From assembly GCA_951406725.2 (NCBI GenBank), contig OX597837.1, positions 39,184,001-39,248,000 on the forward strand: a DNA stretch of 64,000 nt, given 5' to 3'. This DNA is from Octopus vulgaris. Lineage: Eukaryota. Position 1 is the stretch's first letter. Each line of letters opens with the position of its first letter. A model generated the notes under the pieces. The model did no database searches, had not been told where the DNA came from, and worked only from the letters and a program-made list of their open reading frames with translations. Shown here one piece after another: positions 26,755 through 50,105 of this stretch. The translations under genes and the position numbers were made by a program.

Positions 26755-27102
26755 GTTATAAGAAATGACGTAAGTCAATGATTTCTGCTTTTATCTTTAT
26801 ATTGCGATATTTCGGGGTTAAGACCCCGCTTCAAGAAAAAAATGAGCACCTAATCTCTGATTTCTTTTTTCTGAAGAAGGGGTCTTAACCCTAGAAATAT
26901 TGAAATACAAGATAAAAGTGCAAACTATTGGCCTATCTTATTTCTTACAACAACAAATGCACATACACACACTGGAACACAAAAGCTACCTTGCAACACC
27001 ACATCTCAGAATTATTTCTCCTGAAGAAGGGGTCTTAACCCCAAAATATTAAAATACAAGATAAAAGTGAAAATGAATGACTTATCTTATTTCTTACAAC
27101 CC
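26755..27102. mobile_element. Penelope-like or retrozyme-like repeat: one inverted and two direct (150-bp period) copies with a hammerhead-like core
   Basis: CTGAAGAAGGGGTCTTAACCC at 26871 and 27021, with an inverted copy at about 26806-26838. Consensus is CTGAAGA-A-GGGGT-CTTA-ACCCC-GAAA-TATT. Confidence 0.6.
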
Positions 27103-27989
27103 ACATTGTTTTGGTTTTTCAGAAACATAAAAACATTTATTCTGTCACATAATGCTTCATCTAAACTGTATTACTCTACACACACACACACACACACAAT
27201 GCACACATACACATGCATGCACACACATATGAATTTACACAGACATATATATACATGCACACGCATTTACCTTCACCACACGCACATATATATATGTACT
27301 TCATACACACATTTATACATTTACACACACACATACACATATACACATACATACACATATAGACATTTACACACACATACACATATACATTTACACACAC
27401 ATACACATATACATTTACACACACAGAACACATATACATTTACACACACAGAGCACATATACATTTACACACACAGAGCACATATACATTTACACACTCA
27501 TACACATATACATTTACACACTCATACACATCCATTTACACACTCATACACATACATTTACAGACACATACACATGTATATATATTTACACACATACACA
27601 TGTATATATATTTACACACATACACATGTATATATATTTACACACATACACATGTATATATATATTTACACACATACACATGTATATATATATTTACACA
27701 CATACACATGTATATATATTTACACATTTACACACACATGTATATATATTTACACACACACACACATACATTTATACGAAGAAAGAGAAAGAAGAGAATT
27801 GGTAAAGTTCTAACAGCATTAGAGCATTGTTTGTTCCAATTCCCTGCTTTCTAAGATCAAATCCCACTGAATTCCACTTTGCCTTTCATCCCTTGAGGGG
27901 TCGATAAAACAGATTGACAAGAACTCTTTAAATGACAAGCAAGGTGCCTTGCTGTTTTTGGGGGCTCTTTGCAATAGGGTCATTTTGGT

Positions 27990-28522
27990 CAGCTGAAAGC
28001 AGTTTTGGCGCAAACTTGGCAGACCCAAATCTTCATTGATAATGGACTGAACTGAACCCTAGCTAATCTGCACATCCTCTGATAACTCACGGATGCTGAC
28101 TTGATTTCCCTTCACAGCTGCACACACATCTGTGATGTTTTTGACAGTTCTGCTGGTTGCGGGTCTCCTAGAACGTTCGTCAATATCGGCATTTTTTTTG
28201 GCCATCTTAGAAACGTCCAAAACCACTCGTACACTCGTGTGCAGCTCATACACTCCTCTCCATACTCTTTCTGCAACTTTGCGTAGGCCTTCTAAGCAGG
28301 TATCGCCATGACAACTTTCTCTCTCATGGTCAATGCAACGGTCACACGCTACACACCTTCTTTCCAAGCACTGCTGTAAACAGCAGAAGTGAGCTGGAAT
28401 ATTTAAACTTTGTGTGCATGCACATCAGAGATCAAGGTCAATCTGTGCCAAGAGGCTTGACTCTATGACCTCCAGTTTTGTTACTATGGCAACAGTCCGA
28501 ATACTTGTTGATCAAACCATGT
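27990..28522 (-). mobile_element. Mariner transposon 5' fragment (TIR plus HTH-coding region)
   Basis: Frameshifted translation YAKLQKEYGEECMSCTRVYEWF..DERSRRPATSRTVKNITDVCAAVKGNQVSIRELSEDVQIS*GSVQSIINEDLG, plus TIR-like GGTTTGATCAACAAGTATTCGGACTG. Confidence 0.8.
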
Positions 28523-28781
28523 CTATATATATACGTGTGTGTGTATCTTTGTTTGGATTTGTCCTCCTATCACCACTTGACAGCTGGTGTTGGTGTGTTT
28601 ACATCCCTGTAACTTAGCAGTTCAACAAAGGAGACTGGATTAAGTACTTGGCTTAAAAAGTAAGTCCTGGAGTTATGTTTGACTAAAACCCTTCAAGGTG
28701 GTGCTCCAGCATGGCCTTGACTGCAACAAGTAAAAGGATATACACACACACACCTATACACACACACACACACACACACAT

Positions 28782-28815
<34 letters not shown>

Positions 28816-28999
28816 GTGCAGGTCTGGCTGTTTGGTCAATGATGTTGGTGTGTTGAGGACCCCGTGACTTAGCAGTTCGTCCAAAGAGACTGATAGAATA
28901 AGTACTAAGCTTACAAAGAATAAATCCAGGGGTCAATTTCTTCGACTAAAAAGATGGAGCTCCAGCATGGCCAGTCAAGAATGGCTGAAACAAAATTAT

Positions 29000-29374
29000 A
29001 TACTATACACACACACATATATACATACACACACACACATATATGCACACACGCACACCCATAAATGAATGCACACACATATATGCACATACACACACAT
29101 ATGCACATGCACACGCATATATGCATACGCACACGCATATATGCATACGCACACACATATATGCATACGCACACACATATATGCACACACACACATATAC
29201 ATGCACACACACACACATATACATGCACACATATATATGCACACACACATGCATACACATACACACATACATACACACACATACATACATACACACACAT
29301 ACACACACACACTTATAACACACACACTCACACACACACATTCACACACACACATTCACACACACACATTCACA

Positions 29375-29407
<33 letters not shown>

Positions 29408-29410
29408 GAT
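29000..29410. repeat. (CA)n-rich compound microsatellite
   Basis: Directly visible. Confidence 0.95.
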
Positions 29411-47144: not shown

Positions 47145-47205
<61 letters not shown>

Positions 47206-47240
47206 TACCACATCTGTGTGCGTGCGTGTGTGTATGTATG

Positions 47241-47288
<48 letters not shown>

Positions 47289-47741
47289 TGTGGTGGGCCT
47301 TTTACAGTTGCCGTCCACCAATGTTTCACCAGAAAACTACCCTTCATTCGAACTTGGAACGGATGGACAGACAGACAGACAGACGGACGGATGGATGAAT
47401 GATAGACACTGGCTAAGCGCTGTTTATGTAGCGTCTAGTCAGGGGAGGACAAAACATGGAGCAAATATATTTATTGGCTTTTGATGTTATTGGCGTAAAC
47501 AGCACAGTGGTCGGTGATGCGTGACCCAAACAGTGTTTGTACAAGTTTTTGCTGAGAGAGAACGTGTCTGGCACTGCACCAAATTGGTCACTGAAGCAAA
47601 TCTATAACAAGAGACCAGAGTTATATGAAATTTAATAATGACATTGTTGTCTAGTGTATTAAATAGTCTGAGGCATTGTACAGCTATAACAATGACAACA
47701 GCAATAATAATAATAATAATAATAATAATGATGATAATAGC

Positions 47742-48330
47742 AAAAAAGTAGATGTATGCAATCCTCTTAAATATAAGAAGGCTTGACTGTGGAAAATGAA
47801 GAATGTGAAGATAGTGCCAGTTATTGTTGGGTCCTTTGGGGACAGTGTCAGAAAGCATCAAGGGAAATATATAAAGGAAATGGGAACAGAATATCAAATA
47901 GAATTGTTACAAAAGGTTTTGTCTTCTTGGCACGGCCAGAATAATCAGGAAAGTGTTTGATAGTTGAGAAGAACAGAGAGCATGGTACCGTAGATTGCCG
48001 CAAAATCTGAGTTAAAAAGGAATAATGTAATAATGTACAATTCTCTTGAATATGAAATTGCCCGGCTATGAAGAATGAAGAGTGTGAAGATTGTGACAAT
48101 TGTTGTTGGGTCCTTTGGGGGACAGTATCAAAAGGCATCAAGAGGAATATAAAGGAAATGGTAATTGAGTGCCAAGTAGAACTGTTACAAAAGACCTGCC
48201 TCCTTGGCACTGCCAGAATCACTAGGAAAGTTTTAGATAGTTGAAAAGGACAGCACGGTACTGTTGGCAGCAGGTAGTAGGCCCACTATTCATGCTAGAC
48301 CCTAAGGGTTCTAACAAAATCTGAGTTAAA
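47742..48330 (+). mobile_element. Two tandem R4/Dong-type non-LTR retrotransposon 3' ends next to (TAA)n
   Basis: Frameshifted translation LWKMKNVKIVPVIVGS/LGTVS..KYIKEMGTEYQIELLQK/CLLGTARIIRKVFDS*, repeated as ..QVELLQKTCLLGTARITRKVLDS*; preceded by (AAT)n. Confidence 0.8.
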
Positions 48331-48439
48331 AGTACCCTTGATGTGTTGGGCGATATGATATGCTTGAGTAGGCCTGTTGAGTCAAGTAAAACCAAAACCA
48401 AAATCATAGCTTTGGCCAGTGCCCCTTGACTGGCTCCCA

Positions 48440-48991
48440 TAACTGCTAAGTTATGGGGACGTAAACACACCAGCATCGGTTGTCAAGCGATGTTGGGAGG
48501 ACAAATACAGACACACAAACACACACAAACATATATACATATATATGATGGGCTTCTTTCAGTTTCCGTCTACCAAATTCACTCACAAGGCTTTGGTTGG
48601 CCTGAGGCTATAGTAGAAGACGCTTGCCCAAGGTGCCACGTAGTGGGACTGAATGACACTTGCCCAAGGTGCCACGTAGTGGGACTGAATGACACTTGCC
48701 CAAGGTGCCATGCAGTGGGACTGAATGACACTTGTCCAAGGTGCCATGCAGTGGGACTGAATGACACTTGCCCAAGGTGCCATGCAGTGGGACTGAATGA
48801 CACTTGCCCAAGGTGCCATGCAGTGGGACTGAATGACACTTGCCCAAGGTGCCATGCAGTGGGACTGAATGACACTTGCCTAAGGTGCTATGTAGTGGGA
48901 CTGAATGACACTAGCCCAAGGTGCGATGCAGTGGGACTGAATCAAGAACCATGTGGTTGGTAAGCAAGCTACTTACCACACAGCCACTCCT
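48440..48991 (-). mobile_element. SINE family A with internal 36-bp x9 expansion (48619-48942)
   Basis: Unit GACACTTGCCCAAGGTGCCATGCAGTGGGACTGAAT with exact period 36. Confidence 0.93.
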
Positions 48992-49949
48992 GTTTTAAAA
49001 AAAGCGTTTTAAAACGAAAACCTCTCCAGCCTAGAAACTCATTATAGGAAAGATCTTAATTTTGGGAAAAACATTTTTACTTAGTAATTAATCAGTTCCC
49101 ATGATAGAAGTTCTATACAATAATATTTAAAAGGATTTATTTAAATGACTATTGTACTTAGATTTCAATAATGGATTGATTAATTACATGTTCATAAATA
49201 ATTAATGAATCCACCATGGAAATGTGCGTGCAATGGTTAATCAAATGAACCATATTACAGATATATGCACACAGACACACATACACATACATCTGTACAA
49301 GTGTGTGTGTGTGTGTGTATATGTATATATTTATGGACACATATTTTCGTACATATACGTATGTATACGTGTGTGTGTGTGTATATATATATATGTATAC
49401 GTATACATATATACACACACACACACACATATGCAGATACATATATACATACATACGTGCAGACACACATGCATACATGTGTATACATATACATATGTGT
49501 ATGTATGTATATATATATTTATGTGTGTGTATACACACACACACAAACACACATATATGAATATGTGTGTGTATATATGTATACACACACATACATATGC
49601 ATATGTATACGCACACATATAAACACACATTTATTTCTGTATATGTATTTTATTTGGTGGGTCTGGTGGAAGCGGCATGGACCCTAATCTCTTCAGGCCC
49701 TGCCAGACTGATGAAATTGAACTCTAACAATGCACCTGTTGACCTTTTTATATGTTAACCCCTATAAGAAAGATATGAGCAGGAACAAAATTTGGGGGGG
49801 GGGAACTTTCTGGGAATGAAAGATAGGGTGCAGTAATAAGCATGAGGCATAAGGGTATGGAAAGAGGAGAGATGAATGGTTAGGGAATACCCAGGTGAGT
49901 AGGGAGTGAAACAAGGGCTAACTAAAAGTATGAAAACAAGTATGAACCT

Positions 49950-50105
49950 CATTTACATTATTTACATTTGACGGATATTTGTTCTCATCTTGTTTGTTGT
50001 TAACACAATGTTTCGGTCGGCATACCCTCCAGCCTTCATCAGGTGTCTTGGGGAAATTTTGAACCTGGGTTCTCATTCCTAAGGTATTTTTCGATATTAT
50101 TATTA
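49950..50105 (-). mobile_element. Short Penelope-like element with degenerate hammerhead (50002-50047)
   Basis: Minus: GACAC CTGATGA A GGCTGG-AGGGTATG-CCGACC GAAA CATT GTGTT. Confidence 0.55.

Follow-up and report, generated by a model that had tools for sequence, protein, structure and literature searches.

Hammerhead ribozymes are nearly universal in Penelope-like elements (PLEs), yet cutting is dispensable for insertion in the sole reconstituted system, the Poseidon element PAc of Anolis, where cleavage occurs only with protein and no RNA-seq ends are seen at the cut site (PMC11167929). Minimal hammerheads have already been reported by the thousand in individual animal genomes, spread over many families; a minimal motif on its own showed no cleavage, and dimers cleaved at a low level (PMC4209133). 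Insertions of PLEs are marked by an inverted 5'-truncated copy, a tail at one end and (TA)n targets (PMC8557442), and these marks are explained by two internal starts of reverse transcription (PMC11167929). Tandem retrozymes have been described as derived from PLE end repeats (bioRxiv 10.64898/2026.07.22.740005), and a paper on the giant squid counts 235 Rfam hammerheads. The present analysis concerns a 64,000-nt stretch of the Octopus vulgaris genome (assembly GCA_951406725.2, contig OX597837.1, forward strand; G000:C24:39184001-39248000 in our numbering; hereafter the window) and seven families of hammerhead-bearing short repeats within it, designated F1 to F7. The genome comprises 2.8 Gb in ~30 large contigs.

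In these families minimal type I hammerheads are embedded in short, high-copy repeats. These were likely copied by PLE enzymes, a reverse transcriptase and a GIY-YIG endonuclease, in some cases as truncated 3' ends of PLEs and in others as small non-autonomous RNAs. Overall, the families represent the known association of PLEs with hammerheads in a new host and on a larger scale, and not tandem retrozymes. The preliminary description of this DNA had proposed a population of small ribozyme-bearing retroelements, and several such families, tied to PLEs, are indeed present; the label non-autonomous, which it applied to all of them, does not fit F2, the 3' end of a coding PLE.

Hammerhead Sites in the Window

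All of the sites named in the preliminary description exist, with cores at 26871(+), 27021(+), 35926(-), 40808(-), 43612(-), 45195(+), 47079(+) and 50042(-). F1 is represented by two copies on the plus strand, at 26852..26951 (core 26871; stem II carries an additional nucleotide at its foot) and 26999..27118 (core 27021, with G12 changed to A), and by the inverted, 5'-truncated copy with a damaged core at 26755..26843 (-). The F2 copy (35860..35946, -) is the 5'-truncated 3' end of a decayed Hydra-type PLE, in which the core at 35926 is intact and stem II is partly deleted. F3 forms an inverted pair between (TA)n tracts (40680..41048, both arms); its minus arm holds the best-preserved hammerhead (core 40808), and its plus arm is truncated in stem II and bears a tail of ~75 nt. 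The F4 element (43480..43692, -; ~215 nt, core 43612) has its 3' end in (TA)n and a broken stem III palindrome, and the F5 element (45132..45316, +; ~190 nt, core 45195) lies between (TA)n tracts. F6 is a further inverted pair between (TA)n tracts (46940..47145, both arms), with its core at 47079(+) and a damaged, tail-bearing second arm on the minus strand (46940 to ~47010). The F7 body (49950..50101, -; core 50042, stem II and palindrome damaged) has a short 3' end without a tail; next to it, and inverted relative to it, is a tRNA-like head with an A box and a B box (50111..50196, +), followed by (AAT)10.

The CUGANGA core claimed for all sites is present at five of the seven, whereas 45195 reads CTGTCGA (A6U) and 47079 reads CCGACGA (U4C), and both of these are states of their families rather than decay. 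Only 40808, 45195 and 47079 pass a strict fold scan. Four of the seven sites are damaged, with loss of G12 (27021), loss of the stem III palindrome (43612 and 50042) or damage to stem II (26871, 35926 and 50042), and family majorities restore complete folds where the window copies are damaged. Between 26755 and 50105, bounds that were picked after the sites had been seen, CTGANGA..GAAA occurs six times against a shuffle mean of 1.41, a count of six being reached in 1 of 500 shuffles. The elements had been called unrelated in sequence, which is true for six groups only, because F4 and F5 share stem II and their profiles cross-hit.

The window is rich in (TA)n and in repeats resembling short interspersed elements (SINEs). 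Its 77 unique open frames give no Pfam match, no host exon was found among them, and no PLE protein piece was found in the window.

Abundance and Chance Controls

First-look searches of the octopus genome itself returned 253 candidates for F1, 1185 for F2 (two families mixed), 2060 for F3, 3840 for F4, 3051 for F5, 994 for F6 and 1768 for F7. Forty candidates were scored per family, and 25–30 loci per family were fetched, a selection biased towards the window copy. The random sample consisted of sixty 10-kb stretches at fixed round coordinates (600 kb). It holds 13 strict canonical or U4C folds, compared with 0 in reversed DNA and 0–1 in 20 shuffles. A breakdown by core gives 8 distinct folds with the canonical sequence, 2 with U4C, 4 with A6U and 6 with U3-A8 (one likely due to chance), with 0 of each in reversed DNA, and other single core changes yield 0 or 1 fold. 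Altogether 19–20 folds look intact, against 0 in reversed DNA, and 11–12 of these, over half, escape the CUGANGA descriptor.

Loci of the families themselves number 4 for F3 (relatives included), 9 for F4, 10 for F5, 2 for F6 and 7 for F7 in the sample, with 0 for F1 and F2. These 32 loci of five families amount to one per 19 kb, or ~150,000 genome-wide with a wide sampling error, and the five families are estimated from the sample at ~10,000–50,000 copies each. A translated search with F7 gave 36,468 candidates, in agreement with the estimate of 33,000. F1 is old (16% mean divergence) and rarer, its absence from the 600 kb having been scored at a stricter cut-off. The density of the families in the window is unremarkable, with 5 loci seen and ~3.4 expected per 64 kb, and the 23 kb singled out in the preliminary description has no special status.

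The expectation that standard annotation would miss these elements is supported for Rfam. No Rfam hammerhead is found in all 35 matches at 40740-40880, nor in the 150 listed of 465 matches in the window, where the Rfam output is swamped by microsatellite hairpins; on the sampling estimate, ~150,000 loci would escape Rfam. Minimal hammerheads were reported at 2,000–9,000 (PMC4209133), and our estimate is more than tenfold higher; several of the octopus families also differ in having a fixed short length.

Fold Architecture and Core Variants

Rather than one common architecture, as first described, two are present. In F1, F4, F5 and F7 an A is bulged, a G10.1-C11.1 pair is present and the palindromic insert measures 2 nt; F2, F3 and F6 have A10.1-U11.1, no bulge and an insert of 6–7 nt. 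The type I fold with a self-complementary stem III was found, in family majorities, in all seven families, the self-complementary pairs being 4/4 in F1, F4, F5 and F7, 8/8 in F3 and 8/9 in F2 and F6. These features resemble those of metazoan PLE minimal hammerheads, which are of type I with palindromic 15.2-16.2, include a U3-A8 variant, form many families per genome, may have a bulged base after A9 together with G10.1-C11.1 (here F1, F4, F5 and F7), and occur mostly as single motifs with some pairs on opposite strands (PMC4209133).

The majority core is canonical in F1, F2, F3, F7 and one subfamily of F4, and carries a one-base change in F5 (A6U), in F6 and in the second F4 subfamily (both U4C). 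Among off-centre copies, U4C is found in 9/14 for F4 and the canonical core in 13/19 for F7; for F5, A6 is found in 0/22, most copies reading CTGTNGA. The subfamilies of F5 (30, 9, 5, 2 and 2 copies) all retain U6 while position 7 is C, A, T or G and position 17 is A or T. Whole lineages are fixed for the U4C and A6U cores, with variation at the free positions. Divergence from the majority is lower in the core than at the remaining non-CpG positions in F7 (2.4% vs 4.6%), F1 (6.6% vs 17.2%) and F2 (1.8% vs 5.5%), a comparison of 11 positions only that includes picked copies. An origin of the canonical cores by CpG decay of CCGACGA was considered and rejected, since each of the two cores belongs to its own F4 subfamily and these subfamilies show further linked differences.

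U4C is a known natural variant with lower in vitro activity, and A6C is known and impaired, while A6U is absent from the searched text of the same papers (PMC3088659, PMC7151607). Lineage-fixed U4C and A6U cores of the kind seen here are not reported in the available text of PMC4209133, and we could find no printed precedent for them in the literature consulted. The genome offers a natural series of canonical, U3-A8, U4C and A6U cores in thousands of copies each, together with intact young elements as a source of protein, which makes the role of the hammerhead in PLEs directly testable.

Insertion Anatomy

Each family has a defined 3' end 45–130 nt past the hammerhead, and in F3, F6 and F7 a second 3' end lies further on and is confined to one arm. 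The inverted 5'-truncated copy and one-end tail by which PLE insertion is recognised are both found in F3, F6 and F7, and F1 also shows inversions. Insertion mainly into (TA)n, as had been proposed for the elements, holds for F3 to F6: (TA)n follows 37/43 of the 3' ends in F4 and 24/38 in F5, and 31/32 of the tail ends in F3 and 27/28 in F6. It does not hold for F7 (0/23 ends) or F1 (0/4), and in F2 the count is 5/15.

The inverted pairs are particularly informative. In F3 the 30 loci (two duplicated) show 24 different junctions, with the tail on the full arm in 19 and on the other arm in 10, and the F6 tail is on one arm in 12 and on the other in 17 of 30 loci. Because the junction varies and the tail can sit on either arm, the palindrome is made anew at each insertion. 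The template is therefore a single-armed RNA, whose start lies ~45 nt upstream of the core in F3 and 14 nt upstream in F6. The two arms often have private changes in common, and single-armed copies exist. The tails of F3 and F6, like that of an intact Hydra-type element described below, are ~65–75 nt long. In F4 the 5' end lies ~85 nt upstream of the core, with a spread of a few bases in most full copies, both picked and random, and in varied flanks. No longer version of F3, F4 or F6 was found among 25–30 picked loci each or among the off-centre copies. No clustering of 5' ends is seen at the cut site, and the inserted copies hold the whole uncut hammerhead. It was also observed that the inverted pairs mimic microRNA hairpins.

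These properties are similar to those of PAc, which has an optional tail, AT-rich targets, a whole inserted hammerhead and no RNA ends at the cut site; the start of its ORF (open reading frame) spans the hammerhead, as does one open frame in each of F7, F4 and F5 (PMC11167929). PAc differs in being autonomous, and no Poseidon-type ORF was found in the loci examined.

Penelope-like Elements in the Genome

PLE pieces are found in the flanks of the families, and searches with two of these led to young intact elements. An intact Hydra-type PLE has a 717-aa ORF in 2.59-kb tandems and inverted copies, with RWK, DKT and CxCx5C motifs; the protein has a Pfam GIY-YIG match below the cut-off and no RVT_1 match, and its clade was assigned by motifs (PMC8557442) rather than by a tree. 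The element terminates in (TA)n and exists with two ends, a short one and one ~65 nt further on, and its hammerhead has a CCGAAGA core (U4C) and a 7-nt stem III insert identical to that of F6. Many near-identical copies are present in tandem and inverted arrays at the loci L256-L258 (G000:C1:57.206-57.226 Mb and C21:8.15-8.16 Mb). At two further loci (L020, 520-700; L279, ~3900-4000) a short family carries the tail of the Hydra-type element with a different hammerhead of canonical core. Described Hydra-clade PLEs are likewise <3 kb long, with RWK, DKT and CxCx5C motifs, a C-terminal GIY-YIG, (TA)n targets, a hammerhead close to the end, copies that are inverted and 5'-truncated, and a tail on one side (PMC8557442). 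They differ in having canonical hammerheads and tails of 30–40 nt, whereas the intact octopus element is U4C and the tails here are ~65–75 nt.

Neptune-type PLEs, assigned by motif rather than by a tree, encode proteins of 781–847 aa with RVT_1 and mostly GIY-YIG matches, DKG and a CX4CxxC linker, and have U3-A8 hammerheads near their ends. In the 847-aa element (L265-L267), more than 1 kb of microsatellite-like (TG/TA) sequence is conserved in the 3' untranslated region, 700-2100 nt past the ORF stop, which indicates that some of the 'simple repeats' in the genome have been spread by a retroelement. The 781-aa family (L270, L273) has short internal repeats in its 3' region with TGATGACGT and CCAAT-like words, which we take to be promoter-like.

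The preliminary description suggested a search for linked ORFs, and this gave a clear result for F2 alone. F2 lies downstream of same-strand Hydra-type ORF pieces at 5/16 loci picked by DNA and at 4/7 older loci picked by reverse transcriptase, with a fifth inverted, and F2 is therefore the 3' end of a decayed Hydra-type PLE. The possible relationship of F6 to the Hydra-type PLE is at the level of motifs, namely the U4C core and the stem III insert. At one site (L095/L268, G000:C3:166.73 Mb) a single (TA)n tract contains a stack of F4, F5 and a young Neptune-type PLE, an arrangement pointing to shared targeting. The Neptune-type ORF at this site was considered as a partner of F5 and rejected as a mere neighbour, because the family of that ORF has an end of its own, in which the hammerhead is different.

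Several observations weigh against copying of the families by PLE enzymes. F6 has no blast match to the intact Hydra-type element, leaving shared motifs as their link. For F1, F3, F4, F5 and F7, a Hydra-type ORF lies upstream in 0/24–29 loci each, and 0/30 GIY-YIG loci end in one of these families. None of the 150 scored F7 matches lies in a frame of >180 aa, and a protein search with the F7 frame gave no match. Isolated Neptune-type matches near F3, F6 and F7 look like neighbours, and no inverted pairs of F4 or F5 were seen in 19 random loci. Covariation within families is weak; in F3, 97.5% of cells are paired with one compensatory pair, a level reached in 94/500 shuffles. Finally, the copies examined are for the most part those that match the window copy best, and the ends and cores are biased accordingly.

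A tRNA-headed SINE with a Hammerhead

F7 is a SINE with a tRNA-like head; it bears a hammerhead and the insertion marks of PLEs. Its order is a head with A and B boxes and then (AAT)n, upstream of the hammerhead body. The A and B boxes are ~32 nt apart in 29 heads, the body lies within 350 nt of the head in 19/28 heads, and the head is directly upstream in 18/51 hammerhead copies. Among the 25 distinct tRNA sequences of the genome (six isotypes), the best local match to the head is tRNA-Arg (z 7.9 vs shuffles), although neither ARAGORN nor Rfam calls the head a tRNA; the 4 Rfam matches at one F7 copy include no hammerhead model. Pieces of F7 occur in both orientations at 13/25 picked loci and 3/7 random loci, and the longer 3' end is present in 21/51 copies. 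Both 3' ends are fixed and non-repetitive, and no partner long interspersed element (LINE) was found. The frame that crosses the hammerhead is open for 51 codons to the end of the element.

SINEs are normally parasites of LINEs, and a tRNA SINE that depends on PLEs would, if true, add a route of mobilisation. Ohshima and Okada reportedly described octopus tRNA-derived SINEs in 1994 under the names OK, OR1 and OR2, and F7 may belong among them. For the SINEs of 1994 the open literature yielded no connection with hammerheads or PLEs, and no report of a PLE-mobilised SINE or of octopus PLE hammerheads was found in a search that subscription journals, Repbase and Dfam lay outside. We likewise could find no printed precedent in these sources for a tRNA-headed SINE with PLE-type insertion marks. 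The promoter of the schistosome alpha element is tRNA-derived. In that SINE-like element, as in F7, a promoter is followed by a hammerhead within a short interspersed repeat (PMC6765202). No insertion marks are given for it in the available text, whereas F7 has a minimal hammerhead with PLE-type inversions and a tail.

RNA reads were aligned to F7 in three runs of fragmented libraries (X21-X23, with ~6% of each run sampled). These runs contain almost none of the young Hydra-type element and are therefore probably from a related species. A full F7 copy collected 5,269–7,326 reads per run, with the strands equal and 90% of reads running into other sequence; the signal was thus mostly read-through, and the head was thinly covered. 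In these three runs there were no piled ends at the cut site and no back-joint there among the joints listed.

Deletions near the predicted cut site were also observed. In F7, 7 of ~19 deletion openings fall within a few bases of this site (including L165 position 1598), and 8–10% of the F7 RNA reads have a 1-nt deletion at it; these may reflect slippage in a GT repeat or one subfamily. The idea that cutting leaves scars was rejected: the site is a short GT repeat, and F4, F5, F1 and F2 are without such deletions.

Proposed Mechanism and Alternative Explanations

Based on the above results and on the PAc system (PMC11167929), a PLE protein would bind the region from the hammerhead to the 3' end and nick AT-rich DNA, and reverse transcription would begin at two internal sites to give the optional tail. 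In F3 and F6 the template is a single-armed RNA and the palindromes arise at each insertion; because inserted copies hold the whole uncut hammerhead, the template RNA is probably uncut. Transcription of F7 would be by RNA polymerase III from the tRNA-like head, and the other families would use the internal promoter of a PLE end repeat. The fold appears to be under selection in source copies, as free positions 7 and 17 vary and the core is kept. Cutting would take place only as a dimer via the palindromic stem III, and probably only with the help of protein, and the A6U and U4C folds may owe their retention in part to a structural rather than a catalytic role. Inserted copies then decay, with fast loss of CpG. 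Within this scheme F2 is a truncated PLE 3' end and F5 and F1 are possibly so, while F3, F4, F6 and F7 are best read as short non-autonomous RNAs with a fixed 5' end. We tentatively suggest, as a broader reading that we regard as somewhat less likely to be right than wrong, that F7 (~30,000 loci) is moved by Penelope-type enzymes and not by a LINE, that lineages including the intact Hydra-type element have amplified on U4C or A6U cores, which are considered crippled, and that the PLE hammerhead serves mainly as a structure for the retrotransposon protein and not as a free catalyst.

The families could instead all be dead, 5'-truncated ends of coding PLEs, with the fixed 5' ends reflecting truncation hot spots near the hammerhead. 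This is true for F2, and some F5 copies extend for 500 nt or more beyond the usual length, into CA-rich sequence, and their 5' ends are variable. In a DNA run (X15) the Hydra-type 3' end is ~hundredfold deeper than the ORF, a poor measure of copy number, and most single motifs were taken as truncated PLEs in an earlier survey (PMC4209133). As an explanation of every family it is nevertheless unlikely. F7 begins with a tRNA-like head, the 5' ends of most full F4 copies fall at a single point, give or take a few bases, longer versions of F3, F4 and F6 are missing from the loci surveyed above, and no ORF within 8 kb of the long F5 copies could be tied to F5.

The preliminary description placed the elements close to non-LTR retrozymes, tandem units that self-cleave, circularise and are copied by a rolling circle. 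Retrozymes are also small, non-coding and of type I, with a proposed derivation from PLEs (PMC7229834; bioRxiv 10.64898/2026.07.22.740005), and the octopus elements, at 190–370 nt, fit their size range of 170–400 nt (PMC7229834), have the palindromic stem III and include one tandem F1 pair in the window. The link of retrozymes to PLE end repeats cited at the outset could be read in the same direction. Retrozymes are, however, tandem units that make circular RNA (PMC7229834), whereas the families here are solo or in inverted pairs, neither the 32 random loci nor the picked ones contain arrays, and their ends are fixed rather than circularly permuted. Together with the lack of piled ends and, among the joints listed, of a circular joint at the cut site of F7 in the three RNA runs, which are probably from a related species, this makes a retrozyme mode of copying improbable.

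It had also been suggested that intact copies in the window might cut a read-through or antisense host transcript. F7 sequence is present in RNA reads that mostly run on elsewhere, and the 40808 copy has an intact core and stems. Single minimal motifs showed no cleavage in one study (PMC4209133) and needed protein in another (PMC11167929); in addition, folding with 150 nt of context predicts that the inverted arms form long hairpins in which the cores at 26871, 40808 and 47079 are paired, four of the seven sites are damaged, and RNA-read ends do not pile up at the F7 cut site. Cutting of host transcripts by the window copies is on these grounds very unlikely. Lastly, a view of F3 and F6 as DNA transposons resembling miniature inverted-repeat elements (MITEs), bounded by terminal inverted repeats and inserted at TA, suggested by their palindromic form, length of 230–370 bp, thousands of copies and TA flanks, is largely refuted by the varying junction, the tail on either arm, the single-armed copies and the resemblance of the hammerhead in the arms to that of an intact PLE.

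Other Features of the Window and Genome

An eighth hammerhead-like fold lies just outside the bounds noted initially, at 25657..25705 (+), with its core at 25665(+). This copy has C3 with A8, while other copies of its family are U3-A8. The family is common, with 10 blast matches in the 600 kb sample, some of them in inverted pairs.

Other repeats in the window gave no hammerhead. The commonest SINE-like repeat of the window (9337-9784, 26123-26600, 46166-46611 and others) has a tRNA-like head and a (TA)n end, and no hammerhead was found in it. No core was found in a short element after (TA)n at 39635-39770, whose end resembles the F3 end and which has one other match (L173), or in an inverted pair of a rarer repeat between (TA)n tracts at 39925-40115, which is present at one other locus (L262). 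Elsewhere in the genome, seven tRNA-Cys-like genes are clustered within 3 kb on another contig (L355, G000:C12:25267077-25270148).

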